From contig JABJGH010000031.1 in assembly GCA_018662365.1 (NCBI GenBank), forward strand, positions 34,468 through 98,467: DNA of 64,000 nt, given 5' to 3'. The notes beneath the pieces were generated by a model. The model had not been told where the DNA came from. It worked only from the letters and a program-made list of their open reading frames with translations, and did not search any database. Each line of letters begins with the position of its first letter. Within the stretch, counting starts at the first letter, position 1. The translations under genes and the position numbers were made by a program. The DNA is from Chloroflexota bacterium (GTDB lineage Bacteria; Chloroflexota; Anaerolineae; Anaerolineales; UBA11579). This document shows positions 10,550 through 55,130 of this stretch, in pieces.

Positions 10550-13500
10550 AAAAATGGGCCCTAGAAAAAACATCTTCAACTGAACGCAAGTGGGAGGAGT
10601 TTTACCGAAATCGTCATCAACATGACCGACGCATTCGCACCACTCATGGGGTGAACTGCACCGGTAGTTGTTCTTGGGAAGTGTTTGTAAAAGATGGCAT
10701 TGTTACTTGGGAAATGCAGGCCACCGATTATCCTCAACTAGAAGAAGGATTGCCCCCCTATGAACCCCGCGGATGCCAAAGGGGAATCAGTTATTCCTGG
10801 TATCTCTATAGCCCGATTCGGGTGAAATATCCTTATGCGCGCGGCGCATTGGTTGATCTATATCGTGAAGCTAAAGCAATCTATAATGATCCAGTAGAAG
10901 CATGGAAAGCAATCATGGCTGATCCGGTCGCTCGAAAACGGTACCAAACTGCGCGAGGTAAGGGTGGTTTTCGACGAATTTCTTGGGAAGAATCTCAAGA
11001 GATCATTGCGGCTTCTATGATTTACACCACTAAGAAATATGGACCTGACCGCATCGCGGGTTTCTCACCGATTCCTGCAATGTCACAAATTAGTTATGCA
11101 GCGGGCAGCCGATTTATGAGTCTTATGGGCGGCGTGATCATGAGTTTTTATGATTGGTACTGCGATCTCCCACCTGCCAGTCCAGAAATTTGGGGTGAAC
11201 AAACAGACGTCCATGAATCAGCAGATTGGTTCAACTCACGTTTTATTGCAGTGATGGGTTCAAATCTAAACATGACCCGCACCCCAGACACGCATTTTAT
11301 TTCTGAGGTACGACATGCAGGTGGAAAATTAACTGTCTTTTCTCCTGATTTTTCTCAGGTAGCAAAATTTGCAGATTATTGGATTCCTGTTCATGCCGGG
11401 CAAGACACCGCCTTTTGGATGGCAGTCAATCATGTAATTTTGACTGAATTCTACGTCCAAAAAGAGGTGCCTTATTTTACAGATTATCTAAAAATCTACA
11501 CAGATATGCCATTCTTGGTTGAAATTGAAGGCAATAAACCAGGTAAATATCTCCGAGCAAACGCTGTAGACACCTATAAAGATGTAGAAAATGGGGATTG
11601 GAAATTATTGATCTGGGATGCGCTCAGCAAAAAAGCGAGAATGCCGAAAGGAACATTAGGATTCCGATGGGCGGATAAGGAAACGGGGAAATGGAATCTT
11701 GAACCTAAAGATGGTTTGAATGATGATGAACTAAGCCCTCAGTTGAGTTTTGCAGAGGATTACGAGGACGTCATTGAACTCGAATTTGATGATTTCTCCT
11801 CTGATACAACAAACCTACGGGGTGTTCCCGTTCGTTACATCGAAACACCAGATGGAAGAAAAGCAGTCACCACAGTCTTTGACTTAGTCATGGCCCAGTT
11901 TGGTGTGGACCGCGGATTATCTGGTGCTTACCCTGAAAATTACGAAGATGCAGACGGAGTCTATACGCCTGCTTGGCAAGAAAAATACACCGGCATCCAT
12001 GCCGATACCTGCATTAAATATGCTCGAGAATGGGCAACCAATGGTGAAATGACGAATGGTAAGAATATGGTCATCATTGGTGCCGGAGCGAACCACTGGT
12101 ATCACAATAACTTGCTTTATCGATCGGCAATTGTTGCCCTGATGCTCACTGGAAGTGTGGGTGTGAATGGCGGCGGCCTGGCTCACTATGTCGGTCAAGA
12201 AAAATTGGTTAATGTCGGGTCTTGGGCGCAAATCGCCTTTGGTCTCGATTGGGGAATGGCACCACGCCATCAAAACACCCCTTCATTCCATTATGTGCAT
12301 ACCGATCAGTGGCGTTATGAGCGTGGTTACACCGCATATGATGAATTGCCCAATAAACCGGAAAAAGACCATACTATTGACCATCAAGTTCGTGCGGTTC
12401 GACGTGGATGGCTCCCTTTCTTCCCGCAATTCAAACGTAATTCAATCGAGGTTGCTCAAGATGCAATCGATGGTGGGGCAAAAGATGATGCGGAAATTGT
12501 GGATTATGTGGTTGATCAAATTAAAGAGAACAAGATGCCACTCTCGGTTGAAGACCCTGATGCTGAGGAAAACTGGCCTAGAGTTTGGATGATCTGGCGT
12601 GGCAACGCGATCGGCACTAGTGCGAAAGGACATGAATATTTCCTCAAACATTATTTAGGAACACATAATAATGCAATTGCCGGTGAACAGGCATTGGGTC
12701 ATACCAATGAAGTGGTTTATCACAAGAATGCGCCAGAAGGCAAAATGGACTTGGTGGTCGACCTTAATTTCCGGATGGATACCTCGGCCCTCTACTCAGA
12801 TATCGTCCTGCCGGCAGCAACTTGGTATGAGAAAGATGATCTTAATACGACTGACATGCATACCTTCATTAACCCCATGCAAGCCGCAATTCCCCCTGCA
12901 TGGGAATCGAAATCTGATTGGGATATCTTCAAATCATTAGCTAAAAAAGTGAGTGAAATGTCTGAAACTCATCTCTCAGAACCTATGAAAGATGTGGTGA
13001 TGCTGCCATTGAAACATGATACCCCAGATGAAATGGCTCAGCCCCAAATAGTGGATTGGAATACGGGTGAAGTTGAACCTATTCCAGGGAAAACAATGCC
13101 CCATTTCAAAATTGTGGAACGAGATTATACAAGTATATATGAAAAATTCATCAGTCTCGGAAAGGGCGTTGAAAAGAATGGTATTGCTGCCCATGGTTTG
13201 AGAATTCCTGTGGCAGATGAGTACGATTATCTGAAACGGGTACAGCCTCGTGAGTATGGAAAACATGGTGGAGATGTAGATCAAGAGGGTGATACCTATC
13301 CTTCCCTAGAATTTGGCATACAGGTATGTGACACAATTTTGCGCTTAGATCCTGCTTCTAATGGCGAATTGGCTCATCGAGCCTTCGAAGCTGAAGAGAA
13401 GAAAACAGGACTTTCCCTAACCCATCTTGCGGCGAATAACAGAGATACGCGAATAAGTTTCTCGGATCTGATCAGTCAGCCTCGAAGAGTACTCACAACA

Positions 13501-14172
13501 CCCACTTGGTCAGGGTTAATCAACAAGGGCAGAGCTTATTCACCCTTCACGCTTAATGTAGAAGAAAAGGTGCCTTGGCGGACTTTGACCGGCCGACAAC
13601 ATTTTTATCTCGATCATGAAGGATATCTAGCCTGGGGAGAACATTTGCCAGTCTATAAGCCACGCCCAGATCATACGATGCTAGATGAGACTGAAAACAG
13701 CATGGCTGAAGCTCAGGGCAAGATGATGAATTACATCACCCCGCATGGTAAATGGAGTATCCATTCCACGTACTCAGATAATCATCGCATGATGACATTA
13801 TCTCGAGGAAACTACCCGGTCTGGCTCAATAATAAAGATGCTGACGAGATGGAAATCAAAGACAACGATTGGGTCGAGGTTTATAACGATAACGGTGTAT
13901 TCGTTCAGCGAGCAATCGTATCCGCTCGCATTCCTGCTGGCACAGTTTTTGTGTACCATGCCACGGAACGCACGATCGGGATCCCAAAATCTCCACTCCG
14001 TAAAAATAAGCGAGCGGGCATGAACAATTCATTGACCCGTGCTCGACTAAAACCAGTGTTGATGTCTGGTGGTTATGGCCAATTTACTTATGCCTTCAAC
14101 TACTGGGGACCGACCGGCGTGAATCGTGACACATTTGTCTTTGTGCGAAGAATCGATAAACCTAATTTCTAG
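10546..14172 (+). CDS. narG: Respiratory nitrate reductase alpha subunit (no Tat signal, cytoplasm-facing type)
   Basis: [55 protein letters not shown] motifs; 1208 aa. Confidence 0.97.
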
Positions 14173-14226
14173 ACCTCACCTTCATTTCACCAAGATTGAG
14201 GGTGAACGAGGGTCAAGGAGTAATTT

Positions 14227-26073: not shown

Positions 26074-26109
26074 AAAAGATTACCCTTTCTACAAAGGGTA
26101 ATCTTTTTT
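26074..26109 (+). terminator. Intrinsic terminator closing the nar-bc run
   Basis: AAAAGATTACCCTTT-CTAC-AAAGGGTAATCTTTT perfect stem plus T tract. Confidence 0.88.
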
Positions 26110-30865: not shown

Positions 30866-30910
30866 AACAGGTGGCTGGAGAAAAAGATTATTTCTCCAGC
30901 CACCTGTTTT
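30866..30910. terminator. Intrinsic terminator between convergent genes
   Basis: AACAGGTGGCTGGAGAAA-7nt-TTTCTCCAGCCACCTGTT then TT. Confidence 0.88.
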
Positions 30911-39423: not shown

Positions 39424-40791
39424 TCAATGGGAATTAGCAACCACAACTTGGTCACGACCAGCCTGTTTAGCTTGGTAAAGGGCCTGGTCTGCAAGCTGAA
39501 TAAGGCTTTCTGCATTAGTCTCATGTTTTGGATAAAGGGAAATCCCACAAGACAGGGAGATTGAACCCAATAACTGACCGCTGTTTCTAACAGACATCTG
39601 TTTAACTTTGACGCGCAGGTTTTCTGCACGTTCTTGAACGACTTCTAGCGGCGTCTCTGGCAGGATTAATATGAACTCTTCCCCACCATAGCGGCAGGCA
39701 ATATCGGTCACGCGGCTATGGTTCTTTAGAAGTATGCCAAATTCTCGCAATACAGCGTCTCCTGCATCATGCCCGAAGGTGTCATTGAATTGTTTAAAAT
39801 GATCAATGTCCATCATGATGACTCCCACATCTTTTTTTGTTCGCTCTGCTCTCGGGAGTTCACGTTCTAAAGTTTCCTCCATATAACGTCGATTGAACAA
39901 GCCAGTAAGCGGGTCACGGATGGATTGGAAGCGCAATGTTTCCCGAAGCCGCAGATTTACCAATGCTAATGAGACTTGTTCAGTTAAACTCACTGCTAGG
40001 CGTTCTACTTCTTGAACTGACGCAGAATTGTCTTCCAAGTGATTCTGTAGTTGAAGGTAGAGTACTCCAAGAGTTTCTCCATGAGCTGACATTGGTACAC
40101 AGATATGACCACATCCTGGTGATGGATCATGGCGGCAAACAGAAACAGTACTCTGATCGGTTTCTACTCTTATTCGGCCAAGCCTTAATGCCCAACATTC
40201 GTCGTTGGGAATAACTTGGGCCTGAAAATCATCAGGCCAATCGCCCCATGAAGCTTGGGCTTCCAAGTCAGTACCGGATGGATTTCGTAAAAAAAGTGCT
40301 CCTGTTTGATTTTTAAACAGTTTTCCGGCGAACTGCGCAATGACGAAATAGGCTTCATCGGTAGTTTTGCTGGCCTGAAATAAATCTCCCATCTCCTTCA
40401 GCAAGCTCGCCTCAAGGTTGCGTTGTTCCAGTTCAGCTGTGCGCTCTATCACACGCTGCTCCATTTGATCATGTTCACCTTGTAAAGCAGCCTCAGCTTT
40501 TTTGCGCTCTACGATACGCCGGGACAAAGGTAGGAACATAAAAAAGTGCAGAGCAGGAGATAATAATAAAACCAGCAAAATTGAATTGATTAGTGCTTCA
40601 GCAAGTCGAGAAAAATCATGCAGAGGCACAAATAGCATAATCATCATTTCGAACAAGCCAGTCATCGCTGCAATGATAAGCAAATTACGAACCGGGGATT
40701 CCTTAAGGAATATCGACGAGATGAATCTAGAACCCATTTGCTGATCTTTTTCTTTTGTTTTTGTCATTACTTCTCCAATTGGGACTAGCAT
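39424..40791 (-). CDS. Membrane-bound GAF-GGDEF diguanylate cyclase
   Basis: 2 TM, GAF, RDPLTGLFNRR, DIDHFKQFND, RVTD I-site and RYGGEEF. Confidence 0.92.
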   Translation of the reverse strand: MLVPIGEVMTKTKEKDQQMGSRFISSIFLKESPVRNLLIIAAMTGLFEMMIMLFVPLHDFSRLAEALINSILLVLLLSPALHFFMFLPLSRRIVERKKAEAALQGEHDQMEQRVIERTAELEQRNLEASLLKEMGDLFQASKTTDEAYFVIAQFAGKLFKNQTGALFLRNPSGTDLEAQASWGDWPDDFQAQVIPNDECWALRLGRIRVETDQSTVSVCRHDPSPGCGHICVPMSAHGETLGVLYLQLQNHLEDNSASVQEVERLAVSLTEQVSLALVNLRLRETLRFQSIRDPLTGLFNRRYMEETLERELPRAERTKKDVGVIMMDIDHFKQFNDTFGHDAGDAVLREFGILLKNHSRVTDIACRYGGEEFILILPETPLEVVQERAENLRVKVKQMSVRNSGQLLGSISLSCGISLYPKHETNAESLIQLADQALYQAKQAGRDQVVVANSH

Positions 40792-40811
40792 TCATCTATT
40801 TGTACTCAGAG

Positions 40812-41843
40812 TTACGAACTCTCAGTAATTATGTTCAGAAAAACTTCCACCACTTGTGGATCAAACTGTTTCCCGTTCTGATGTTTAATTTCATTTAATG
40901 CCTCTTCATTAGTCCAGGCTTTCTTATATGGTCGCTCATGGATTAATGCATCAAACACATCTACAACGGTCACTATTCGACCAGGTAGAGGAATCTCTTC
41001 CCCTTTCATGCCAGCATAACCATTGCCATTCCAGTGCTCATGATGAGTCAATGCTATCTTCTCAGCCATATTCAAGAGGGGGGATTGACTCCCCGAAAGG
41101 ATTTTGGCACCAATGGTGGTATGTGTCTTCATCACTTCCCACTCTTTTGGCGTGAGTTTCCCTGGTTTGAGCAGGATTGAGTCGGGGATGCCGATTTTTC
41201 CGATATCATGCAGGGGAGCAACCTGCCTGATTATTTCAACTTGATCCTCAGAAAAGCCCAACCCCGCAGCAATTCGAGCCGACAATTTTCCCACACGTAG
41301 AATATGTTCGCCGGTATTATCGTCGCGATATTCCGCAGCTAATGCTAACCGTTCTAATATCTCGATCCGAGATTCGTTGAGTTGTTGAGTTCGTTCTTGC
41401 ACTTTTTGGTCGAGGGTTTGGTTCTGATTCTGAAGCTGCAGGTGCAGTGATCGTGTCTGGAGCAAGTTGCGGATGCGAAGGATGACCTCGGTTGGATCAA
41501 AAGGTTTAGTCAGAAAGTCGGTAGCACCCTCCGAAAGGGCATGCTGTTTTGCCTCAGAAGTAATATCGGCAGTCAAAACCAGGATTGGTAGAAATGAATT
41601 TTCTGGGATGTTTTTTCGTAATTGTTTCATCACGGCATAACCATCCATATGCGGCATATGGAGATCCAATAGGATTAGATCTGGTTTGAAATTCAGAAAA
41701 GAGGTCAGGGCTTTTCTAGAGTCCGTGATGCTCAAAAAGTTTTCAAAATTTTCTTCCTGTAGAATACCCTCTAATAAAAGGGTGTTGGGAACCTTATCAT
41801 CGATGATTAGGAATTTTGGATCAGTGAAAGTATTTTTAGCCAT
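40812..41843 (-). CDS. REC-HD-GYP c-di-GMP phosphodiesterase (RpfG-like)
   Basis: LIIDD/LLDLHMP receiver; [35 protein letters not shown]. Confidence 0.92.
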
Positions 41844-44800
41844 TTAGTTTACATTTCCTTTCATCAGTTTTTCAATAAGTTTGATGAAATCTTCTATGTT
41901 GAGCGGTTTCGTCAAGTATGCTTCTGCTCCCAGTTTCATCAGTTCCTTGATCTTACTAGGATTAGCATCAGCACTGTGCATTATCACTGGGATAGCCTTA
42001 GTTTCCTTATCACTTTTCAGATGACGCATCGCATCTAACCCATTCATGCCCGGAAGTTGCATATCAAGTATTATTAGGTCTGGTTTCTGCTGACGGGCAA
42101 TTTCTATACCTATCTCAGCTCGAGTTTCACCTAGTAGTTCAATCTGGGGATACTCGGTTAGTATTTGTCGGACCAATTCAAAGTTTGCCGGATTGTCTTC
42201 GATGTACAGGATTGAAAAGATCTGTGCAGGAAGCTCGACCAACGATTTTTCCTCATCTTTTTTGATCAGGTATTCAAGCGGGTCGTTTGTTATTGGCAGC
42301 TCGACCCAGAATGTGCTGCCCTGCCCAACTTCACTTTCCACGCCTATTTTCCCATCCATCAGCTCCACCAGACGTTTGGATATTGAAAGGCCCAGCCCCA
42401 CTCCCTCTACCTCACTAGTTTCTGCGCCTAGGCGTTCAAAAGGTTTAAATATTCGTTCTATTTGATCAGGTGACATACCATTCCCAGTGTCTGTCACCAA
42501 GATGCGCAGATAGCCGTTCGGGCGTTCCTCATGAGTGACAGTCACTCGTCCACCCTGACGGGTGTATTTGACAGCGTTACTCATCAGGTTCAGGCATACC
42601 TGTTTCAATCGTTGATGGTCGGCTAATATGTACAGGTTTTCACCTGGCTCAGTCGGAATTACTATTTGGATATCTTTCTGGTCCGCCAGTGGTTTTATTA
42701 GCTCACACGCTTCTCTTTCAGCACTCTGTAACTGCACAGGTTCTGGTGAGATTTCCAAGCGGCCAGCCTCAATCCGTGAGAGATCCAAGATTTCATTGAT
42801 CAGGCTGAGCAGGTGCTTCCCCCCTTGAATAACTTGATTGGTACGTTCTCTCTGGCTGTCTGACAGGGGATCTTTCTTGCTCATTTCCATTAGCTGTGCA
42901 AAACCCAGGATAGAGTTCATCGGCGTGCGAAGTTCATGGCTCATTCGGGAGAGGAACTCAGATTTGGCCTGATTGGCAACCTGGGTTTCCTTAAATAATT
43001 CCGAGACCCGGATAGCACTTGCTACTTGGCTAGCAAAGACAGAGAATGTTGAGATATCATTTTCTTTAATATTTTCACCCCACACCACTAACACTCCAAT
43101 TACTTCTTCATCGGCGAATAATGGTAAATAGATGGTTGAAACATTTTGCTTCATTCCCGCCAACCTAGCAAAGCTTTTGACCAAAACTTCAGGAAATTCA
43201 GGCAGCATTTTTTCTATCACTGGAAGAATATTCTTGAAATACTGGGGTTTTTTTTGTTTAACAAGATCTTCATAGACCGGGAAGTTCTTGCGTGGTATAG
43301 AAAAACCCTGTGAGCTTACACCAGCCAGTTTCTCAGCCGCCTTTAGCGCTTTTGATCCCATAGCAACATATTTCAAAATCATATCTTGTCCTTCGGGATC
43401 TAAAAAAGCGACAAAATAGTTAATACCTTGTTGGGTTAACTCGTATTCTAGAATCTTGTATATCTGTTGAGGATCTAGGGTTGTTTGGACTTTGCTAGCC
43501 ACTTGGTTCAAAGAAGAAATCAGATTATATGAATTCATCATGGCGATTGACTGATTCTTCAGATTCTCTTCATTTTTTTTACGTTTAGTGATGTCTTGTT
43601 TGACAGCGATGAAATGTGAAATTTCACCCCTTTGGTTTTTCACAGGTGTGATCGTTATTTCTTCTGTATAAAGGCTTCCATCCTTCCGCTTATTGATTAT
43701 CTCATTATGCCAAACTTGCCCAGATTTGATCGTATCCCATAAAACGCTATAGAAAACTTCATCGTGTTGGCCTGATTTGAGGATATTGGGCTGGTTCCCC
43801 ACAGCTTCCTCTTTCATATAACCGGTCAGGCGGCTGAAGGCCGGGTTTACCCAGGAGATCATACCGTCAAAATCAGTGATGATGATCGCATTGGCGGAGG
43901 CCTCCAAGGCGGCATTTTGCAGCTGCATCTCCCGATCGTCGAGCATGTGTTGGGTGATTTCTTGACCAAAAGCCTGTATTTCTTTAAGCTCACCATTTTT
44001 ATTGAATATACCGCGATCTGTCCATGTTTCCCAACATTCTTCATCATCAGAACTGATAGTATAGAATTCATCAGTGAAAACAGGATTTGTAGGTGTCAGC
44101 TTAGCAAGCTTTTTTCTAAACCGCTTCTGTTCTTCCTTTGAGAGTTCATCGATAATCCTGGTTCCTATTAAATCATCCTCAGATCTGCCCATATGACGGC
44201 TGTAACTCTGGTTGACGAAGGTGCGGGTCGTATCGGGCAGATAGCGGACCAAAAATTCGGTTTGATCCTCTACTACAGAGCGGTATTTCTCCTCACTCTG
44301 TTTGAGAGCTTCCTCCATATTTTTTCGATCGGTGATATCCCAGCCCATAGATTGGATCGCTATCAACTGCCCCTCTTCATCAAAAGTTCCCCGATCAGTC
44401 CAGTGATACCATCTACCCGCTCTATCTCCCTTGGTTCCGAGATATTCATCGGTTTGAATCGGTTGTTGTGGGGTGAGGGTTTTGATTCTCCGCTTGATTA
44501 TCTTGGCAGCTTTTGAGGAAATTAATGAAAAAAAATTGATTTTGATAAATTCTTCACGGGTCTTTTGAAATAATTTTGCATATTGTTCGTTCACGAAAAC
44601 AATGGTTCCATCCGGTTTCCATCGATAGATTAGTTCAGTCATGTCTTCAAGAATGGATCGAAAACGATTTTCGCTTTCTTGAAGTTCCTTGGTTCGCTTA
44701 TTGACGCGATCCTCCAGTTCTTCGTTTAGTTTTTGGATCTCATCTTCGACCTGTTTGCGTTCTGTGATATCGCGTATGGTGGCAGAGATCAACGAGCTGT

Positions 44801-45128
44801 CTTCAGTTTTCAGAAAACTTAGACTAATATCTATGGAGAACTCAGTGCCATTTTGCTGCAGGCCATACAAATCCAAACCCTCTCCCATGATACGTTTCTG
44901 TGGATTGGCAGCAAATTTTTCCCTGTTTGTGGGATGAGTCGTGAATCGCTGTGGAATTAGAACTTCCACAGGTTTACGAATCAGTTCTTCTGCTCGGTAA
45001 CCAAACATTTTTTCGGCTTGAGGGTTAACCAATAAGATTTCACCGTCTAAATTGGTGATGATGATCCCATCTGGGGATGAGCTAAAGAGATCAATAAAGG
45101 ATAAATTATTTTCAAGAGCATTATCCAT
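41844..45128 (-). CDS. Multi-PAS, GAF, hybrid histidine kinase (HisKA-HATPase-REC)
   Basis: Four PAS/PAC repeats, KSEFLSRMSHELRTP, NAVKYT, GVGLGLSI, C-terminal receiver LDMQLP. Confidence 0.92.
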   Translation of the reverse strand: MDNALENNLSFIDLFSSSPDGIIITNLDGEILLVNPQAEKMFGYRAEELIRKPVEVLIPQRFTTHPTNREKFAANPQKRIMGEGLDLYGLQQNGTEFSIDISLSFLKTEDSSLISATIRDITERKQVEDEIQKLNEELEDRVNKRTKELQESENRFRSILEDMTELIYRWKPDGTIVFVNEQYAKLFQKTREEFIKINFFSLISSKAAKIIKRRIKTLTPQQPIQTDEYLGTKGDRAGRWYHWTDRGTFDEEGQLIAIQSMGWDITDRKNMEEALKQSEEKYRSVVEDQTEFLVRYLPDTTRTFVNQSYSRHMGRSEDDLIGTRIIDELSKEEQKRFRKKLAKLTPTNPVFTDEFYTISSDDEECWETWTDRGIFNKNGELKEIQAFGQEITQHMLDDREMQLQNAALEASANAIIITDFDGMISWVNPAFSRLTGYMKEEAVGNQPNILKSGQHDEVFYSVLWDTIKSGQVWHNEIINKRKDGSLYTEEITITPVKNQRGEISHFIAVKQDITKRKKNEENLKNQSIAMMNSYNLISSLNQVASKVQTTLDPQQIYKILEYELTQQGINYFVAFLDPEGQDMILKYVAMGSKALKAAEKLAGVSSQGFSIPRKNFPVYEDLVKQKKPQYFKNILPVIEKMLPEFPEVLVKSFARLAGMKQNVSTIYLPLFADEEVIGVLVVWGENIKENDISTFSVFASQVASAIRVSELFKETQVANQAKSEFLSRMSHELRTPMNSILGFAQLMEMSKKDPLSDSQRERTNQVIQGGKHLLSLINEILDLSRIEAGRLEISPEPVQLQSAEREACELIKPLADQKDIQIVIPTEPGENLYILADHQRLKQVCLNLMSNAVKYTRQGGRVTVTHEERPNGYLRILVTDTGNGMSPDQIERIFKPFERLGAETSEVEGVGLGLSISKRLVELMDGKIGVESEVGQGSTFWVELPITNDPLEYLIKKDEEKSLVELPAQIFSILYIEDNPANFELVRQILTEYPQIELLGETRAEIGIEIARQQKPDLIILDMQLPGMNGLDAMRHLKSDKETKAIPVIMHSADANPSKIKELMKLGAEAYLTKPLNIEDFIKLIEKLMKGNVN

Positions 45129-45579: not shown

Positions 45580-45993
45580 TTAATTGGGTTTGTTTAGTGG
45601 GGAATTTTCTAAGCTGTTGCCAATCTGTTGCCATTTTGACGGAATTGGGATTACCAATTCATCCATAAGCTCTGCGGCTTCCTTTTGAATGACTGGTAAA
45701 AAGTGGCTATAGATGTCTAAAGTGATACTTGGCTTTGAATGACCTAACCATCTAAGTACCACCATTAGAGGGATGCCATTCATCAACATTAAGGTTGCAG
45801 CAGTATGCCTTAGATCGTGAAAACGAATATTCGACAGACCGACTTTCTCGAGCAACGGTTTAAAGTAACGATGCGATTTACCTTGGTCTGTGGGGCTCCC
45901 GGAAGGGGTCGGGGAAATCAAATCATTCTCTTGCCAGTCTTTTCTATGGCGTTCTAATTCCAGGTGTTTGTAATTTTCTATAAGTTGATACAT
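45580..45993 (-). pseudogene. Tyrosine integrase C-terminal remnant
   Basis: IRFHDLRHTAAT, LGHS, TLDIYSH catalytic motifs. The N-terminal part, including the first catalytic Arg, is absent; points toward the tRNA-Lys fragment. Confidence 0.85.
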
Positions 45994-46032: not shown

Positions 46033-46854
46033 CTAGCTAATCTCTCGCCCCAAAGCAGCCGCCACTTTCCCAACCTCTTCAAACCACTGCGGTAGCATTT
46101 CAAGCGGCAAAGCCTGATCGCCATCGGATAAGGCTTCGTCAGGTTTGGGGTGAAACTCGACCATCAAGCCATCAGCCCCGGCAGCAACCGCGGCTCGTGA
46201 TGCCGGAATGATAAGATCACGCCGTCCGGTAGCATGGCTGGGATCACCGATGACGGGATAAGGGCTAATCTGCTTAAGGAGTGCAATGGCGCTTGTGTCA
46301 AAGACATTGCGGGTGGAATGATCAAAGCTGCGGATGCCACGCTCGCATAAGATAATATTCTCGTTGCCGCGGTTGGCAATATGCTCAGCGGCCATCAACC
46401 ATTCCTCGACAGTGGACATAAAGCCGCGCTTAAGCATGATGGGCTTATTCATCTCGCCGACAGCCCACAAGAGCGGGAAATGCTGCATATTGCGACTGCC
46501 AATCTGAATGATATCAGCATACTCAGCGACTAGTTCAACCTGCTCGATGCCTAAGGCTTCCGTGACGAGGGCGAGACCAAATTCATCGGCGACATCGCGC
46601 AGAATTTTGAGGCCTTCTTCGCCTAAGCCCTGGAAGGCATGCGGCGAAGTACGCGGCTTAAATGCGCCGCCCCGAAAAATCTTAATGCCGATCTCAGCGA
46701 CGGTCTGCGCTACCCGTCGGGCCTGTTCGTAGCTTTCCGCGGAACACGGCCCGGCGATGAGAACGACTTCGTCACTGCCAATGGTTAGGCCTTCTCGGAT
46801 TTGAACTTGGATGTCTGTTTTTTCTTTAGCCATAATCATTAATGCACCATTCAA
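46033..46854 (-). CDS. aroF: DAHP synthase, type I-beta, without N-terminal regulatory domain
   Basis: IAGPCSAES, RGGAFKPRTSP, QIGSRNMQ, LKRG, LCERGIR, DPSHATG, EFHPKP, SDGDQ. Confidence 0.9.
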   Translation of the reverse strand: MNGALMIMAKEKTDIQVQIREGLTIGSDEVVLIAGPCSAESYEQARRVAQTVAEIGIKIFRGGAFKPRTSPHAFQGLGEEGLKILRDVADEFGLALVTEALGIEQVELVAEYADIIQIGSRNMQHFPLLWAVGEMNKPIMLKRGFMSTVEEWLMAAEHIANRGNENIILCERGIRSFDHSTRNVFDTSAIALLKQISPYPVIGDPSHATGRRDLIIPASRAAVAAGADGLMVEFHPKPDEALSDGDQALPLEMLPQWFEEVGKVAAALGREIS

Positions 46855-46856
46855 AA

Positions 46857-48386
46857 TTAAATAATTGATTCTCTTTCCGTCAAACTATCTATACTTGCCA
46901 GCACGAGCTCACATACCTTACGGCGTTGGATTTTACCGGAAGCGGTTAGCGGTAGACTTTCATAAAAGATAATCTGGCGCGGGATTTTGTACCCAGCCAA
47001 ATGCTGACGGCAAAAAGTATCAACTAGTTCTCTGGCTGAAACATGCTGGCCGGGTTCCAGCACAACGGCAGCAGCGACCTGTTGACCCCATTCCTCATCT
47101 GGTAAGCCAACAACACAGGCCTGGGCGACGCTGGGGTTGGATAGCAAAACCTTCTCTACCTCGGAAGGATATATATTCTCACCACCGCTGATGATTAGGT
47201 CAACCCGGCGCTGTACGAGCCAAAGATCGCCATCCAGATCGAGGTATCCAAGGTCGCCAGTATGCAACCAATCATTTTGAAAGGTTTTGGAAGAGGTTTT
47301 AAGCTGAAGATAATAACCCTGCATGAGGGTCGGTCCGCTAACCAGGACTTCGCCGATCTCACCTGCGGGCAAAACAGACCCACCTTGATCGACAATCTTG
47401 ACGCTGGTCCCGACAAGCGGCTTGCCAACCGTGCCTGGCTTATGGCGGGTTTCTTCCGGTGTGGCAGTAGACACCTGGGAAGCGGCTTCGCTGAGACCGT
47501 AGGTAAGCCCCACTTTTAAATCAAGAGCAGCGGCTTGGACCAAAAGCTGTTCGTCGGCAGCGGCGCCACCCAATAAGATCAGGCGTAGGGTTTGCAGACT
47601 AGCTGCAGATCGAGAGATGCTTAGCAGGCGGGCCAGCATGGTGGGAACCAAGGAGATAATCGTAGCTTTCTGAGCGTCAATAGCATCCAATACAGCCCTC
47701 TCATCAAAACCCCTAAGCAGGATTGTAGCAGTACGGTAAAAGCAGGAACGCAGCAAGATCGCCATTCCACCGACATGGTAAAGGGGCATACAGAGCAACC
47801 AGCGGTCGTTGGGCTGGGTTCCCAGACGCTGGGCGGAAGCCTGGGCGCTGGCAGAATGGTTGGCGTAACTCAATGCGGCGCCTTTAGGAAAGCCAGTGGT
47901 ACCGGAAGTAAAGACGATAGATTGAAGGGCATTCGGGTCAAAGGCGGGCAAATCCCAATTGGCAGTATCGTCAGGTGTGAGAGATTGAAGCTGCTCCAAG
48001 CTGATGGCCTTGGCTATGCTGCCAAGGCCATGGATCTGGACAGTAGTGCTATCATCAAAGATGACAAAAGTGGTTTCGGCATAAGCAGCTTGCCAGGAAA
48101 GTTCCTCGGCAGTAAGGCGAATGTTCAAAGGAAGCAAGACAGCACCAATACGTGCCAGGGCGTGGAGCAAGAAAACCCACTCCGCCCTGTTGGGCATCAA
48201 AACGCCAATATGCTGGCCGGGACGAACGCCTGCAGTGAGCAAACGCCCAGCCCAACTAGTAACGGCCTGATCAAGGGCAAGATAGTCCCATGACTGATCA
48301 CCATGAATTAATGCCAATTGTTGAGGAGCCTCTTGGGCGGCCTGTTTGAGCCAATCTTGTTTTGCTTTCATTCGACCTTTATCCAT
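46857..48386 (-). CDS. menE: O-succinylbenzoate-CoA ligase
   Basis: FTSGTTGFPKG, PLYHVGG, YGLSEAASQV, TGDLGY, LIISGGENIYP; men-cluster context. Confidence 0.9.
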   Translation of the reverse strand: MDKGRMKAKQDWLKQAAQEAPQQLALIHGDQSWDYLALDQAVTSWAGRLLTAGVRPGQHIGVLMPNRAEWVFLLHALARIGAVLLPLNIRLTAEELSWQAAYAETTFVIFDDSTTVQIHGLGSIAKAISLEQLQSLTPDDTANWDLPAFDPNALQSIVFTSGTTGFPKGAALSYANHSASAQASAQRLGTQPNDRWLLCMPLYHVGGMAILLRSCFYRTATILLRGFDERAVLDAIDAQKATIISLVPTMLARLLSISRSAASLQTLRLILLGGAAADEQLLVQAAALDLKVGLTYGLSEAASQVSTATPEETRHKPGTVGKPLVGTSVKIVDQGGSVLPAGEIGEVLVSGPTLMQGYYLQLKTSSKTFQNDWLHTGDLGYLDLDGDLWLVQRRVDLIISGGENIYPSEVEKVLLSNPSVAQACVVGLPDEEWGQQVAAAVVLEPGQHVSARELVDTFCRQHLAGYKIPRQIIFYESLPLTASGKIQRRKVCELVLASIDSLTERESII

Positions 48387-48461
48387 ATACTTATTACCAG
48401 ATATCTCTAGTGTTTTGATAATGATAAAACCAATAGCTGTATCAGGTTGGTTTCCTCGACA

Positions 48462-48525
48462 AAGCCAAGTGTTCCGTCATTGGCTACGTTAATACTTGAA
48501 TGAGGCTTGACAGAACACTTGGCTT
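48462..48525. repeat. 18-bp inverted repeat with 28-bp spacer in the menB-menE gap
   Basis: AAGCCAAGTGTTCCGTCA ... TGACAGAACACTTGGCTT (17/18 complementary). Confidence 0.65.
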
Positions 48526-48582
48526 GTAAAACTATCCAATCTATCGATTGAAATAACCTCAATCAGGCCCCTGTAGTAAATC

Positions 48583-49428
48583 CTACGGACGCCAGGGGTA
48601 CTTGCGGAATTCAGGTTTGCGTTTTTGCAGATAAGCATCACGGCCTTCTTGTCCTTCTTCAGACATGTAAAAGAGCATGGTAGCATTGCCAGCCAATTCC
48701 TGGATGCCAATCTGCCCATCGGTTTCAGCATTGAAGGCAACCTTCATAAATCGGATGGCAAGGGGGCTTTTCTCCATGATTTCTTTACCCCAAATAACAC
48801 CTTCCTCTTCAAGCTCCGCCACGGGAACTACCTTGTTAACCATCCCCATCGCTTCAGCCTCTTCGGCGCCGTACTGACGGCAGAGATACCAAATCTCTCG
48901 AGCCTTCTTTTGGCCGACGTGACGGGCCAGAAAGCTGGCACCCAACCCAGCATCAAAACTGCCGACTTTAGGACCAGTCTGCCCAAAAACGGCATTATCG
49001 GCAGCAATCGTTAGATCACAAACAACATGAAGAACGTGCCCGCCGCCGATGGCATAGCCGGGGACGAGGGCAATTACAACTTTAGGAATCGAGCGAATGA
49101 TTTTTTGCAGAGTAAGGACATTCAGGCGGGCAACGCCGTCGTCTCCAATATAGCCTGCTTCCCCGCGGACGCGCTGGTCGCCACCGGAACAAAATGCATA
49201 TTTGCCATCCTTGGCGGGGCCATTGCCTGTCAAAAGAATAACGCCAATCCGGGAATCTGCCCAGGCATCGTTGAAAGCATCGATCATCTCATCAATGGTT
49301 TGGGGACGGAAAGCGTTACGAACTTCCGGGCGGTTGAAAGCAATACGAGCTAGTCCCTCCTCGCATTTGTGGTAAGTAATATCCTCATAGGATCTGGCCT
49401 CTTGCCATTTTACAGATGAAGTTTCCAT
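48583..49428 (-). CDS. menB: 1,4-dihydroxy-2-naphthoyl-CoA synthase
   Basis: [48 protein letters not shown]. The ATG at 49428 follows the menD stop. Confidence 0.97.
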
Positions 49429-49429
49429 T

Positions 49430-51223
49430 TTATTCAGTATTCCTTTTAATTTTTTGCTGGACAATTTCCAGTATGGATTGATTTAGTTGGGCATCCAATT
49501 TTTGGCGAGTCGCTTCGTGGAAACTAGCATCGCCACGCACTTCGATGAGAACCGCAACCTGCTTGGCGAGCGCACTTATAACTGCTTCCTGATATGCTTT
49601 CGGTGTTTCTACCTGGTGGTAATCAAGCCCGAATAGCTCAGCCGCGGGGCCAAATTCCAGACCGTGAGGGGTGAGAAATAATTTGGTGAACTGTGGCTCA
49701 TATCCGGCGATCGGCAAGCGTTGGAAGATGCCGCCACCATCATTGTTGATTAAAATAATTGTTAATTTAAGATCATATTTTTGGATAAACAGCAGGCTAT
49801 TTAGATCATGGTAGAAGGCCAGGTCTCCAATCAGTAATGTGACATGCTCCCCACCTGCGGCAGCCCCAAGTGCGCTAGCAATGATACCGTCGATACCGCT
49901 GGCACCGCGATTGGAGAAGACATGGATGTCCATATTACGAGGACGCGCAAACTGATCTAGATGACGAATCGGCAAACTGCTCGCAATATAACAGAGGCTG
50001 TCTTGTGGAAGCTGGTCAGCTAACTCGGCGGCAATGCGTCCCTCAAACCATTCTTCGGCGAAGAGGGTTTCAATGTGATCCCAGGTGAGTTGCTCGACGG
50101 CCTGCCAAGCAGCAAGCCAAGATGATGAACTGTCTCTAATAAGCGCATCTGCAACCCCGGTACAGAGAATAGCCTCATCACACTGATAAACATGCTGCAC
50201 CAAGTAGTTTTCGTCCATCCATAAGCCACTAGAACTGACAGCGATACGCTCGGCGTTTGGGATTCGGGTCAAATAATTATTCAAATTATTTGAAATCGGG
50301 GACGCACCGAATTGAATAATAAGATCAGGGGGATCTAACTGTTTACCAAGTTCGGTGGGCAAGAAAGTTTCATAAGCGCCGATGATATGTTCATTGACCA
50401 AGGAATTGAAACGTAAACCAGAGAGACTATCCGCCAAGATCGGGGCACCCAAGAGTTCTGCTAGCCGCATAACAGCTGAGGGAAAATCATTGCCAGGACA
50501 ACGGGGGCCGCAAACCAACAAGGGACGTTCGGCGGCAGTCAAGATCTCCACAAACTGCGCATATTGCTCGATGGTTGGCTGGGTTCTGCCGCGCTGGACA
50601 AGACCTCTCCCGTAATCGTTTTCCGTTAAGATGGATTGCCAGAGATCATCGGGGACATCACCATCTACGGTAATTGGTCCTAGGGGCTTTCTGAAGGGAA
50701 TATTTAAATGCACCGGGCCGGGATGTTCTCCCAAGGACTTGGCAATGGTTCTCCCCCCCATACCAAGCAGATAACGCACAAGCTTGAGATCTGGGGCAGC
50801 TTCCGGGAGAGGTAAATCAACGAACCAGCGAACATGATCGCCATATAATTTTATTTGGTCAATAGTCTGGTTTGCACCACTGTCCCGCAGTTCTTGGGGG
50901 CGGTCGGCGGTCAGCACGATGAGGGGGACACCGGCATAGTTGGCCTCTACGACGGCGGGAAAATAATTGGCAGCGGCAGTGCCAGAAGTGCAAACCAAGG
51001 CAGTCGGTTTACCAGAACGGAGGGCTGCCCCTAAAGCAAAATAGCTCGCCCCGCGTTCGTCCAAGAGGACATATTCTTTAATATCTGGATGTTCAGCAAA
51101 GGCTAACGCTAACGGTGTCGAACGAGAGCCGGGGGATATGCAGACTGTTTCCAACCCGGCTCGGGCGAAACCTTCAACAAGTAAATAGCTCCAGAGCAGA
51201 TTGCGGTTGGACGGTTTAATCAT
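49430..51223 (-). CDS. menD: SEPHCHC synthase
   Basis: [64 protein letters not shown]. Confidence 0.97.
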
Positions 51224-52625
51224 CTAGCTCGACTCCTAAGGCGTCCAGCAAGGGTTTAAATTTAAGGTCGGTTTCCCCCCATTCTTTTTCCGGCTCGGAA
51301 TCTGACACAATACCCGCCCCGGCAAACAAATAAGTGTCCACTGAGCAGTTCAAGCCAGAACGGATGGCAACGGCAAAAACACCATCACCGGCAGCATCGA
51401 CCCAACCGACCGGGGCAGCATACCAGCCGCGCTCAAAAGGTTCCACTTCACGGATATAAGCCAAGGCTGATTGGCGAGGTATACCGCCCAAAGCGGGAGT
51501 TGGATGGAGACGTTCCAACAAAGCAATCGCAGTTGTACCATGGGAAAGGATGCCATTCATCGGGGTTTCCAAATGCTGAATGTTCTTTAAGCGGCGTAAG
51601 CTGGGTGTATTAGCAACAGTTAGCTGGGAGGTGATCGGGGTAAGTTTATCGAGCATCATATCAACGACAAGCTGATGCTCATGGCGGTCTTTGGCGCTGG
51701 CGAGCAATGCGGCGCCCAGGTCAGCATCCTCGGCGGGGGTCGCACCGCGATTGTTCGAACCAGCCAAGGCGGCGGTGGTAAAACTACCGGCGGAAACATC
51801 GATCAGGGTTTCCGGTGTAGCGCCAAAGAAGACCCTGCTGCGCTCAGGTTCAATCAAGAATTTGGTGCAATCAGGATAATTGGCAGTGAGATACTGCATG
51901 ACATTGGCAAAATCAGGCGATGATGTCCCAATGAGGTGGGCAGTGCGAGCGAGAACAACTTTGTCCAAATGGCCTGTTTGCATATGAGACAAAGCGCCAT
52001 TGATGATCGCGTCCCACTGATATTTTTCCATATCGGCTTCAAAATCAACAGTTGGGGAAACAAATCCGGTATCATCATCGCAGGGTCTCTCACTCCCCAG
52101 CTGATTCCAATCTTCGATATGTTGACTTTCATGGCGAGCGAGTTCCTCGGCTTCTTCTTGATGAGCAAAAACATTAACGGTTAGCCAGCTTTGACCCTCA
52201 AGTTGTATTATTTGGTAGTGAGGCAGGCCAAACCAAGCAGCAGGAAAACCCTGCCAGCGTTGGCCGTCAACTTGATCCCAAAATGAAAAACCACCAAAAA
52301 ATCGGGGCCGAATCTCATCTGGCAGATCGTGATCAAGGAGGATGATCTTGTTTAAGAGGGTCTTAGTTCTTTCCTCTATATGCCAAAAACGCTCCAGGCC
52401 GCTAGCCTTGATGGTGGTGGCCCAGCCTAACCCGGCAATCTGCATAGCGTCTCCCTGCCCAGCCCAATAAAGACGCGGCAGAGTTGGTTGATGGGTTAAA
52501 AAGTGCCAGATCGAAAAATGCTCAACGCGGCGAGTATAGCTTACCAGAACCTGGTCTGCTGGCCATAAGTCGTCATTTTTAGCAATGTAGTGATTCACCT
52601 TGGGAAGAGTTTTCATAATTGTCAT
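51216..52625 (-). CDS. menF: Isochorismate synthase
   Basis: KVVLAR, GATPETL, ALAGS, KDRHEH, IQHL, HPTPALGG, RGWYAAPVG, AGAGIV. Confidence 0.92.
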   Translation of the reverse strand: MTIMKTLPKVNHYIAKNDDLWPADQVLVSYTRRVEHFSIWHFLTHQPTLPRLYWAGQGDAMQIAGLGWATTIKASGLERFWHIEERTKTLLNKIILLDHDLPDEIRPRFFGGFSFWDQVDGQRWQGFPAAWFGLPHYQIIQLEGQSWLTVNVFAHQEEAEELARHESQHIEDWNQLGSERPCDDDTGFVSPTVDFEADMEKYQWDAIINGALSHMQTGHLDKVVLARTAHLIGTSSPDFANVMQYLTANYPDCTKFLIEPERSRVFFGATPETLIDVSAGSFTTAALAGSNNRGATPAEDADLGAALLASAKDRHEHQLVVDMMLDKLTPITSQLTVANTPSLRRLKNIQHLETPMNGILSHGTTAIALLERLHPTPALGGIPRQSALAYIREVEPFERGWYAAPVGWVDAAGDGVFAVAIRSGLNCSVDTYLFAGAGIVSDSEPEKEWGETDLKFKPLLDALGVELDD

Positions 52626-52631
52626 TCTGTT

Positions 52632-53252
52632 TCAATTCAATGTTTTCAATTTTTCTTCTGAGATGCCAATGCTACGAAGGAGCATGGTATGCAAGGTCGG
52701 GATGACACGCTCCGGTTCCGGATCGCCAGTGCGCACCCAACGCATAACAACATCGTTGATGGCTCCCATCCAGATGAAAGCAGCGACCTCGGTATCGATA
52801 GGAGCAATATCACCCTCCTTAACGGCTTGATCGAGGTGTTTTTGGATCATGCGAGCAAAGCGGGTATGAATTTCAGCCTGCTTGATTTCAAAGCTTTCGC
52901 CAAGTCCGGTGGCCTGGACTAGAAATATTTTTGCGAGATTACCATATTTTTGGAAGGTTTCAAGGCAAGTACGCAAAGCAACATCAACGCGCTGGACGCC
53001 GTGTTCTTCACGGGCGATGGCCGCTGAAAGATTTCGTTCCAGAACTTCCACAAACTGCTCAATGATGGCAAAAAAGATCTTTTGTTTGCTGGGAAAATGA
53101 AAGTAAACCGCACCCTTGGAGGTTTGCGAGGCATCGACAATTTCATCAACGCGTGCATCATGATAACCTTTATCAGCAAAGATGTTGACAGCAGCATCCA
53201 TGATTTTTTTCCGGGTTTCTTTGGCTTTGTCTGGGGAACTGGATATATTCAT
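52632..53252 (-). CDS. TetR/AcrR-family regulator
   Basis: RKKIMDAAVNIFADKGYHDARVDEIV...SKGAVYFHFPSK. The ATG at 53252 is preferred over the GTG at 53279. Confidence 0.92.
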   Translation of the reverse strand: MNISSSPDKAKETRKKIMDAAVNIFADKGYHDARVDEIVDASQTSKGAVYFHFPSKQKIFFAIIEQFVEVLERNLSAAIAREEHGVQRVDVALRTCLETFQKYGNLAKIFLVQATGLGESFEIKQAEIHTRFARMIQKHLDQAVKEGDIAPIDTEVAAFIWMGAINDVVMRWVRTGDPEPERVIPTLHTMLLRSIGISEEKLKTLN

Positions 53253-53270
53253 AAGCGCCTTTATTGTGCA

Positions 53271-53308
53271 TATATTCACAACAGACTGACTAGTCTGTTG
53301 TGAATATA
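53271..53308. promoter_or_regulatory. Candidate TetR operator
   Basis: Perfect 17-bp inverted repeat TATATTCACAACAGACT-GACT-AGTCTGTTGTGAATATA between tetR and the divergent menH. Confidence 0.75.
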
Positions 53309-53418
53309 GTAATCCAAAAGGGGGATTTTTTCAATAACCTTGGCTATCAAAAACTATCAGGCCTGACCCACTTCCTGCTTGATTTGTATTCACTGTAACT
53401 TATATAATTCGGTACAAT

Positions 53419-54258
53419 ATGCCTATGGATATAATTTGGCCCCATCTAACTTTTGGCAATGCGCAAAAACCACCGATTATATTCTTGCATGGATTTATGG
53501 GCAGAGGGGAGGATTGGCGGGCAGTCTGTGAGATGCTGGCAGGAGACTTTTATTGTTTGGCGCCCGATCTGCCGGGGCACGGCGAGAATACGAAACTACC
53601 GCTGGATGCTCCGATTATTTTTAATGACTTAGCAAAGGGTGTACTAACTTTGTTGGATGTCTATGCCTTACCCCTAGCGGCATTGGTTGGATATTCAATG
53701 GGCGGGCGGGTTGCACTACATACAATTATTAAGCACCCAGCGCGATTTCGAGCGCTGGTTTTGGAAAGTGCCAGCCCAGGGTTAAAAGAGGAAAAAGAAC
53801 GTCAGGAGCGGTTGGAAATTGACGGGATGCGGGCAAAAAATATCTTGCAGAATGGTCTACCTTCTTTCTTGGAAAAATGGTATCAGGCTGAGGTGTTTGC
53901 TTCGTTGCAAAGCCGTCCGAAAATCCTAGATTCGATAAAAACTGCCCGCCGGCAAAATGAGGCAGCGTGGATGGCAAAGATAATCATTGACCTCAGCCCA
54001 GGACAGCAGCAGCCACTATGGGAGGAACTGCCCAACCTAGCGCTGCCAAGCCTAATCCTGGCAGGCGAACTAGACGAAAAGTACAGTCTAATTGCAACAA
54101 AAACGGCAGGGGCTGTGGTCAATGCACAATTACAATTAATCCCGGAGACGGGGCATAATATCCATACGGAGGAGGCAGGGGTGTTTGTGAAGGAGGTGGA
54201 AGTATTTTTGAAGAGAACTAATGAGGTGCACCCAAATTTCTGTACCACCCAGAATTAG
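53419..54258 (+). CDS. menH: SHCHC synthase (alpha/beta hydrolase); C-terminus runs into the IS end
   Basis: FLHGFMG, PDLPGHG, GYSMGGR, LESASPG, GELDEKY, GHNIH. The last 12 codons lie within the IS inverted repeat. Confidence 0.9.
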   Translation: MPMDIIWPHLTFGNAQKPPIIFLHGFMGRGEDWRAVCEMLAGDFYCLAPDLPGHGENTKLPLDAPIIFNDLAKGVLTLLDVYALPLAALVGYSMGGRVALHTIIKHPARFRALVLESASPGLKEEKERQERLEIDGMRAKNILQNGLPSFLEKWYQAEVFASLQSRPKILDSIKTARRQNEAAWMAKIIIDLSPGQQQPLWEELPNLALPSLILAGELDEKYSLIATKTAGAVVNAQLQLIPETGHNIHTEEAGVFVKEVEVFLKRTNEVHPNFCTTQN

Positions 54259-55130
54259 ACTGTAACTTGATTTTGATGATCTAGCAAGGGAATTTTTGAA
54301 TGCTTAGCTGCAAAAGTGGAAGGGGGAAGATAGTCTAGCGCACTATGGGGGCGAATATGATTGTACTCATCTCGCCAAGTTTCAACAATTGTTCGCATTT
54401 CTGGTAAAGTGAAAAACAAATAACGATTAAGACATTCCATTCTAAATTTACCAAGAAAACTTTCGATATAGGAATTCTCCCAAGGACTACCCGGGTGAAT
54501 ATAAAGTGTCTTGCAGCCCTGTTCGGCAAACCAACTCTGAATATTATGAGCAATAAACTCTGGGCCATTATCACTACGCATATATTTAGGGGGCCCATAA
54601 ATGCGAAATAGCCAATCTAGCAGATGAATAACTTTTTCTGATGTGAACGAGCGATCCGCCTGGAATGCAAGAAATTCTCAAGTGTACTCGTCGATAATCA
54701 CCAAAATACGTGTTCGTTTTCAGTTCTGCAAGCTCTCTTCCAGGAAATCATAACTCCAGACATGATTGCGAAATTCTGCCTTGTGGATCACATCTCCTTT
54801 GGGTCCATAGTGTCTCTTGCGAGTATTTCTCCGAGGAAGCTGTAGTCCTTCCACCTGCTGCCAGACACGTTGTACTCGTTTGTGGTTCACCTGTGAGCCC
54901 TCCCGCTTCAGCACCACTGCGATCCTCTTCGGTAACCATACCCAGGATGTCGATGAGCGAGTTTTCGAACACTTTGACTAAATGCCATTTCCTCTGGATC
55001 ATCTTTGGAAATATATCGAGTACTCGAACGATTCATCCCTATCAACTGACAAGCACCACGTTCTGAATAACTGTGCTCTGATATCAGGTATTTTTACCAC
55101 CCTTCGCTTTGCTTGAGGACTCACCAATCT
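54255..55130 (-). pseudogene. IS3 OrfB DDE transposase, multiply frameshifted
   Basis: Fragments GYGYR, VNHKRVQRVW, NHVWSYDF, RSDNGPEF, PGSPWENSYIESF, YNHIRPHSAL in different frames. Confidence 0.85.

Follow-up and report, generated by a model that had tools for sequence, protein, structure and literature searches.

The stretch of DNA analysed here (the window, 64,000 nucleotides of a Chloroflexota genome) carries a TetR-family regulator gene at the head of a menaquinone operon, preceded by a perfect inverted repeat. This arrangement raises the question of whether menaquinone supply has a transcriptional regulator of its own, and of what such a regulator would sense. The transcriptional control of menaquinone synthesis is poorly understood, and enzyme-level feedback makes up most of what is known. 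Full-text searching, with incomplete coverage of journals, found no described dedicated transcriptional regulator of men or mqn operons. The comparisons presented below indicate that the TetR protein is very probably a previously undescribed regulator dedicated to menaquinone supply.

Organization of the tetR-men locus

The operon is encoded on the minus strand and begins with tetR (53252 to 52632), whose product is 206 aa long when counted from the ATG. Genes were assigned with Pfam and NCBIfam profiles by comparing each bit score with the curated cut-off, as follows:

53419–54258, plus strand: menH, SHCHC synthase, divergent from tetR (TIGR03695, 235.5 bits against 208.6)
52632–53252, minus strand: tetR, TetR-family regulator, first gene of the operon (Pfam TetR_N, 57.1 bits against 24; TetR_C_24, 32.1 against 26.4)
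51216–52625, minus strand: menF, isochorismate synthase (TIGR00543, 341 bits against 225)
49430–51223, minus strand: menD, SEPHCHC synthase, with an 8-bp overlap with the end of menF (TIGR00173, 446 bits against 244)
48583–49464, minus strand: menB, DHNA-CoA synthase (NF005637, 466 bits against 380)
46857–48386, minus strand: menE, o-succinylbenzoate-CoA ligase (TIGR01923, 386 bits against 330)
46033–46854, minus strand: DAHP synthase of type I-beta, last gene of the cluster (NF006421, 385 bits against 335)

The products MenF, MenD, MenH, MenE and MenB each score above a curated NCBIfam equivalog or subfamily cut-off. The profiles and coordinates bear out the gene order given by an earlier reading of the sequence alone, in which tetR was the first gene of tetR-menF-menD-menB-menE-aroF (aroF being the DAHP synthase gene), a 6-bp gap separated the tetR stop from the menF start, and menH was divergent. 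A family search of the same genome located MenC at C4:21450-22412 (360 bits against 200.65) and MenA at C33:44612-45436 (168 bits against 102); neither gene is linked to the men operon. The classical pathway is complete in this genome, since these two enzymes are encoded elsewhere. A DAHP synthase gene also terminates many orthologous men operons, and the operon of the window is an ordinary, well-supported member of the regulon with an unusual, derived operator.

The operon is otherwise tightly packed, with the exception of a 196-bp non-coding gap between menB and menE (48387–48582), which possibly holds an internal promoter or another element. The men cluster is bracketed by mobile-element remnants, as a 137-aa C-terminal fragment of a tyrosine integrase (45580–45993) lies just downstream of the DAHP synthase gene and a 108-aa transposase fragment (rve_3, 54255–54581) lies just after menH. 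A signalling cluster is also found on the minus strand at 39424–45128 of the window, encoding a multi-PAS histidine kinase of 1094 aa that includes a receiver domain, a 343-aa response regulator whose output is HD-GYP-like, and a 455-aa GGDEF protein.

Conservation of the tetR-men linkage

Orthologues of the regulator with 52–68% identity are encoded in six of 40 relatives from the same order, and in all six the gene immediately precedes menF-menD(-menB-menE) and is read in the same direction. In a scan with one genome per species, 331 genomes encode a relative of this TetR, and the best 80 loci were taken for comparison. All of these belong to Anaerolineae-type Chloroflexota MAGs except for two contigs labelled Nitrospinota and Pleurocapsa. 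Among the best 80 of the 331, tetR is followed by menF-menD-menB-menE at 52 loci and by other genes at 23, and the remaining five run off the contig end. The sequence-only reading had named a linkage unique to this genome as the finding that would count against it; linkage and operator are instead conserved across many Chloroflexota families.

In an even sample of the phylum, searched with a match threshold of E <= 1e-30, the regulator was found in 112 of 401 Chloroflexota genomes (59 of 218 genera), nearly always as a single copy. Forty diverse loci with 31–60% identity to the TetR of the window were selected to represent the phylum. Twenty are classical men operons, seven are futalosine operons encoding PF02621 (MqnA/D) together with MqnC/E-type radical SAM enzymes, and four to five are UbiD/UbiA late-step modules joined to an ABC importer of the type described below for the importer-linked loci; the rest are contig ends or unclear. 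The neighbours of tetR are men, mqn, UbiD/UbiA or ABC importer plus menA genes in at least 31 of the 40 phylum-wide loci and in 74 of 75 close loci. About one in four of the sampled Chloroflexota genomes has this regulator with its operator at the head of genes for menaquinone synthesis or putative precursor uptake.

One distant Chloroflexota locus, counted among the 20 men loci, encodes an apparent repressor-enzyme fusion (L186:9042-11129). It is a single ORF of 695 aa in which the TetR_N/TetR_C domains (residues 15–192) are in frame with a chorismate-binding MenF domain (residues 430–682). Several further genomes of the phylum sample have open frames of 430–715 aa at the tetR match.

The perfect inverted repeat and the family operator

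The intergenic region between tetR and menH contains the following predicted elements:

53306–53334, minus strand: predicted sigma-70-type tetR/men promoter, TTGAAA-17-TACTAT (9/12 match)
53271–53308, no strand: perfect 17+4+17 inverted repeat, of which the inner part alone is conserved in relatives
53281–53302, no strand: operator core in the family register, ACAGACTGAC-TA-GTCTGTTGTG

The arms of the repeat, 53271–53287 (TATATTCACAACAGACT) and 53292–53308 (AGTCTGTTGTGAATATA), are 17 nt each, 100% complementary and separated by 4 nt, which confirms the perfect repeat described earlier at 19–56 bp upstream of the tetR ATG. The repeat occurs once in the 2.79-Mb, 66-contig genome, and our own arithmetic (64,000 positions x 21 loop sizes x 4^-17) gives a chance expectation of about 8e-5 for such repeats in 64 kb. 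The window contains two more perfect hairpins with arms of at least 15 nt, at 30866–30908 (18-nt arms, 7-nt loop) and 26074–26107 (15-nt arms, 4-nt loop), and arm length alone is therefore not special. The repeat stands out because it is sited between genes that start in opposite directions and because relatives share its core. The hairpin at 26074–26107 resembles a terminator (AAAAGATTACCCTTT/AAAGGGTAATCTTTT).

As expected for the TetR family, a predicted palindromic operator is present at the regulator's own promoter, in a derived form in the window. Of the best 80 of 331 loci, 79 have its family pattern, wAGACYGAC-NN-GTCRGTYTw, in the 250 bp that precede tetR. The conserved operator is 18–22 bp long, with AGACYGAC-NN-GTCRGTYT as its 18-bp form and ACAGACCGACCAGTCGGTCTGT as an example of the 22-bp family form. 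Many of the 40 diverse loci carry operator variants that retain the CGAC-NN-GTCG centre. Thirty of the 34 genomes searched contain the exact pattern roughly once each, and a reversed control pattern gave three matches. The best sigma-70-like -10 hexamer has its end at -1 to +13 nt relative to where the 22-mer begins in 73 of 76 loci; this distance check is constrained and only indicative. With the -10 box beside the 22-mer, the operator is placed over the transcription start. A site over the transcription start is the classical position of a repressor.

In the window, the left half-site of the core is canonical and the right half reads GTCTGTTG in place of GTCRGTYT. This right half would fit either two substitutions or the loss of one GTCN unit from a tandem GTCG-GTCT. 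The change makes a new dyad, ACAGAC-N6-GTCTGT, with an axis 2 bp off the family register. Scored with a PWM derived from 78 orthologous sites, the core in the window reaches 12.0 bits, compared with 22–33 bits for the training sites. Relatives with a 92%-identical TetR (contigs L116 and L117) have only CAGACTGGCTAGTCTGTTG in common with the repeat. The core CAGACYGRCYAGTCTGTTG is also present in L116 and L117 and in a sister lineage (G009/L032), and the operator variant is therefore clade-specific. L116 and L117 lack the outer 10–11 nt of both arms (TATATTCACA and TGTGAATATA), which means that arms pairing perfectly over 17 bp are a trait of this genome alone. Of the proposal that the 17-bp palindrome is the operator, the core holds, as the family operator aligns with it, and the full perfect arms do not. 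By these alignments, the perfect 38-bp palindrome is a form, derived in this lineage, of an operator that is itself conserved widely. The arm extension sets TATATT -10-like boxes symmetrically, one per direction, and may be the product of quasi-palindrome correction, as an alternative to selection.

The operator core begins 3 nt past the -10 box of the predicted tetR promoter, so the expected transcription start is covered. The -35 and -10 elements of this promoter are the same in L116 and L117. The recognition-helix sequence of the TetR protein, TSKGAVYFHFPSKQ, is unchanged in this clade, and the protein is therefore expected to recognise the canonical half-site, with possibly weaker binding to the site as a whole. 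Given the 12-bit site, repression in this lineage could be weak or altered. The best promoter match for menH, TTGATT-18-TATAAT at 53379–53408, lies 71 bp beyond the palindrome and does not overlap the operator; control of menH by the operator is uncertain. An Rfam scan of the tetR leader for a riboswitch or other RNA element gave no family match, with sub-threshold noise only.

Two genomes separate the operator from the gene arrangement of the window. In G060 (L120:2520-2620, G060:C38), the operator CTAGACCGACTGGTCGGTCTGG directly follows a TTGACG-17-TATGCT promoter and precedes menF by about 65 nt. The menF locus of this genome has no tetR, and the regulator is encoded on another contig with the importer and menA. 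From this arrangement, G060 appears to be a natural case of regulation in trans. Genome G050 has two tetR copies, each with its own operator, one heading a full men operon and the other heading the importer. These arrangements indicate that the operator belongs to the men promoter and does not serve tetR autoregulation only.

The suggestion that a regulon could be reconstructed from the palindrome succeeded across genomes, where men, mqn, UbiD/UbiA and importer loci were recovered, and failed within the genome itself. There the PWM from 78 sites recovered the window site and one intragenic site, the window site being the sole intergenic one, and no operator was detected near menA or menC. The intragenic site is the best family-operator match in the genome (G000:C13:219137-219158, L114:6138-6159; ATAGACCGACCAGTTGGTTTTG, 20.3 bits) and falls within an 836-aa ORF, in its 3' part. 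By a rough estimate about four such matches are expected by chance, and it was taken as a chance match and not as a regulon site.

Importer-linked loci

At 21 of the 23 loci with other downstream genes, tetR is followed by genes for an NMT1/SsuA-like substrate-binding protein, an ABC ATPase and a permease, which make up a NitT/TauT-type importer. The binding proteins bear lipoprotein signal peptides. Their nearest solved relative is SsuA (E = 2e-7), a match that gives no clue to the importer ligand. In seven loci menA directly follows the importer in convergent orientation, with 306–320 bits against a cut-off of 264:

L055:10622-13173: importer under TetR and operator, menA convergent after the permease
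L059:10605-13269 and 13320-14222: the same arrangement
L034, L047, L048, L056 and L075: the same arrangement

A UbiA-family prenyltransferase is encoded between tetR and the importer in L058 and immediately after tetR in L066. In L087 (6860-10600), genes for the substrate-binding protein, ATPase and permease are located immediately upstream of tetR-menF-menD-menB-menE-menH on the same strand, placing synthesis and putative uptake genes side by side at one locus.

Whole-genome searches of the 23 importer-linked genomes, which are MAGs and possibly incomplete, did not find MenB in 21, and MenD was likewise not found in the same 21. MqnA/D (PF02621) was found in none of 29 genomes tested, MAGs that may likewise be incomplete, and the positive controls were detected. 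MenA was identified above its curated cut-off in 21 of the 23 genomes, and the other two hold a UbiA-family gene in the tetR operon. Judged by gene content, these genomes would be able to prenylate a naphthoate without any known way to make one.

The importer-linked regulators are close to the men-linked ones. In a tree of 81 TetR sequences, the men-linked radiation encloses both of the clades into which the importer-linked copies fall, and no column of the alignment separates the two groups. The groups share the same residue at 36 positions of the ligand domain that are conserved to at least 90%; identity across this domain is 57% between the groups and 60–67% within them. On these genomic grounds, the odds are roughly even that the SsuA-like ABC system imports a menaquinone precursor, for example one of the DHNA type. 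According to Ravcheev and Thiele (PMC4746308), the importers that take up soluble menaquinone precursors "remain to be annotated", and a 2023 study describes quinone uptake pathways as "yet to be identified" (PMC10746273).

The TetR protein and its nearest known relatives

The TetR_N match of the regulator (PF00440) covers a helix-turn-helix at residues 17–63. The AlphaFold model (pLDDT 86.5) is all-helical with 10 helices, and Foldseek matched it with probability 1.00 to many TetR structures (TM 0.7–0.76), in keeping with the two-domain fold of the family. The nearest solved structures by sequence and fold are AibR (5k7f), FadR of S. acidocaldarius (6el2) and FadR of B. subtilis and B. halodurans (3whb/5gp9), with 18–24% identity. 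A search for the ligand by structure was set aside, as Foldseek matches to FadR, Rv0078, QacR and EthR2 are near-equal in score and allow no pocket inference.

The FadR-type TetR proteins, namely FadR (YsiA) of B. subtilis and B. halodurans and others (3WHB, 3WHC, 5GP9, 6EL2, 3ANP), are the best fold and sequence matches, and JGI names relatives of the regulator "fatty acid metabolism regulator". Like FadR, the protein is predicted to be a one-component TetR regulator with an N-terminal helix-turn-helix, a helical ligand domain and a palindromic operator at its target promoters. Unlike FadR, with which it has 18–22% identity, it has menaquinone genes and not fatty-acid degradation genes as its targets, and an acyl-CoA effector is disfavoured by the spread of genomic contexts. 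The curated models for FadR (NF053878, 67.4 bits against 200) and ScbR (NF041196, 81.7 bits against 150) both score below their cut-offs, and no fatty-acid degradation regulon was found among the 40 phylum-wide and 75 close loci.

BioQ is a TetR-family repressor of biotin synthesis and of the bioYMN uptake genes in Corynebacterium and Mycobacterium. It resembles the present system in being a local TetR with cofactor synthesis and importer genes under one palindromic operator, and it differs in pathway, phylum and operator. BioQ may be the closest functional analogue among those known to us. Enzyme-level control of the classical pathway takes the form of allosteric feedback of DHNA on MenD. The proposed regulator would likewise bring a signal from the naphthoate stage onto early steps; unlike the feedback on MenD, it would act on transcription and would also reach the futalosine route and the uptake genes. 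QsrR, YodB and CatR are regulators of the MarR/DUF24 type that sense quinones by thiol chemistry and control detoxification genes. A proposed response to quinone-type molecules is common to these and to the TetR, which belongs to another protein family and has menaquinone synthesis, not detoxification, as its target. TetR local repressors are already known as a kind; what appears to be new, from the gene neighbourhoods, is one with menaquinone supply as its target pathway.

Proposed mechanism and effector

Regulator, operator and the position of the operator at the promoter are conserved between genomes, and comparative genomics points to action in trans in at least one genome. The association is exclusively with genes for menaquinone synthesis, its late steps or putative uptake of precursors. 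We consider it likely that the protein is a TetR-family one-component repressor dedicated to menaquinone supply, as regulator, operator and operon together suggest. A TetR dimer would bind the palindromic operator starting 3 nt after the -10 box of its own promoter. The bound operator would cover the transcription start and shut off a single transcript comprising tetR, menF, menD, menB, menE and the DAHP synthase gene. As the first cistron, tetR would also be regulated by its own product.

The effector would be a molecule common to the classical, futalosine, late-step and importer contexts. Candidates are a naphthoate head group (DHNA or its 6-carboxy isomer) or demethylmenaquinone, menaquinone or menaquinol, and we put the chance of a naphthoate or quinone effector at about one half. 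Because the regulator occurs in all of these contexts, OSB-CoA and DHNA-CoA, both confined to the classical route, are disfavoured, and so are futalosine-specific intermediates. Chorismate is irrelevant to importer plus MenA modules, which argues against it more weakly. End-product feedback, in which the ligand favours DNA binding, would be the logic that accounts most coherently for targets in synthesis as well as in uptake. Few TetR proteins are known to work with a co-repressor (DesT, FabR). End-product feedback is favoured loosely, because it is uncommon in the family, and classical ligand-induced release is the alternative.

Among the alternatives, the protein might sense a classical-pathway CoA-thioester, with OSB-CoA or DHNA-CoA releasing it from DNA in the manner of FadR, KstR2 and AibR. 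The acyl-CoA sensors AibR and FadR are its nearest solved relatives by sequence and fold, and the TetR_C_24 match of the C-terminal domain and the JGI name agree with such a role. However, the identity to these proteins is low, the fold E-values do not part FadR from QacR or EthR2, and the NCBIfam FadR model reaches 67 bits against its cut-off of 200. Moreover, an equally conserved ligand domain and the same operator are found at futalosine operons and in importer plus menA genomes without MenB and MenD, where these thioesters are absent. We regard thioester sensing as improbable. The sequence-only reading had listed OSB-CoA and DHNA-CoA with DHNA and quinone status as possible ligands; the two thioesters are now unlikely, because the regulator, with no group-specific residues in its ligand domain, occurs in importer plus MenA and futalosine genomes that are without MenE/MenB chemistry, and DHNA-like head groups or quinone status are viable.

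Equally improbable in our judgement is a substrate-inducible repressor released by chorismate or isochorismate, by which menaquinone synthesis would be turned on when the precursor is plentiful. Both the classical and the futalosine route begin at chorismate, a DAHP synthase gene is present in many of the operons, and ligand-induced release is the usual TetR logic. Chorismate is, however, not a substrate of the importer plus MenA modules in genomes without a de novo route, and the late-step UbiD/UbiA modules are far from it. It is highly improbable that the palindrome is no operator, that is, a hairpin or terminator, a mobile-element remnant or a product of quasi-palindrome correction beside a generic tetR placed there by chance: the outer arms unconserved even with a 92%-identical TetR, the flanking transposase and integrase fragments, the other perfect hairpins and the poor matrix score would all suit such an origin, but the repeat is flanked by the starts of two divergent genes and by no gene end, the operator present in 79 of 80 orthologous loci aligns with its core and is equally far from the -10 box, no Rfam family matches the repeat, and the operator pattern is essentially unique per genome.

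Significance for menaquinone supply in Chloroflexota

The main value of the repressor reading is the family-level pattern, with a candidate menaquinone sensor on one side and a candidate precursor importer on the other. The conserved regulator-operator pair is a direct handle on menaquinone gene control, and as a genomic marker it points to the ABC importer as a candidate for menaquinone-precursor uptake. DHNA cross-feeding is relevant to gut, oral, food and sediment communities. We propose, tentatively and with more doubt than confidence, that this TetR family represents the first transcriptional sensor dedicated to the menaquinone pool, acting by feedback from a naphthoate head group or (demethyl)menaquinone, and that the lipoprotein-anchored SsuA-like ABC system is the missing importer of a soluble precursor such as DHNA. 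If this is true, vitamin K2 synthesis, its late steps and its salvage would all be marked by one regulator throughout the Chloroflexota.
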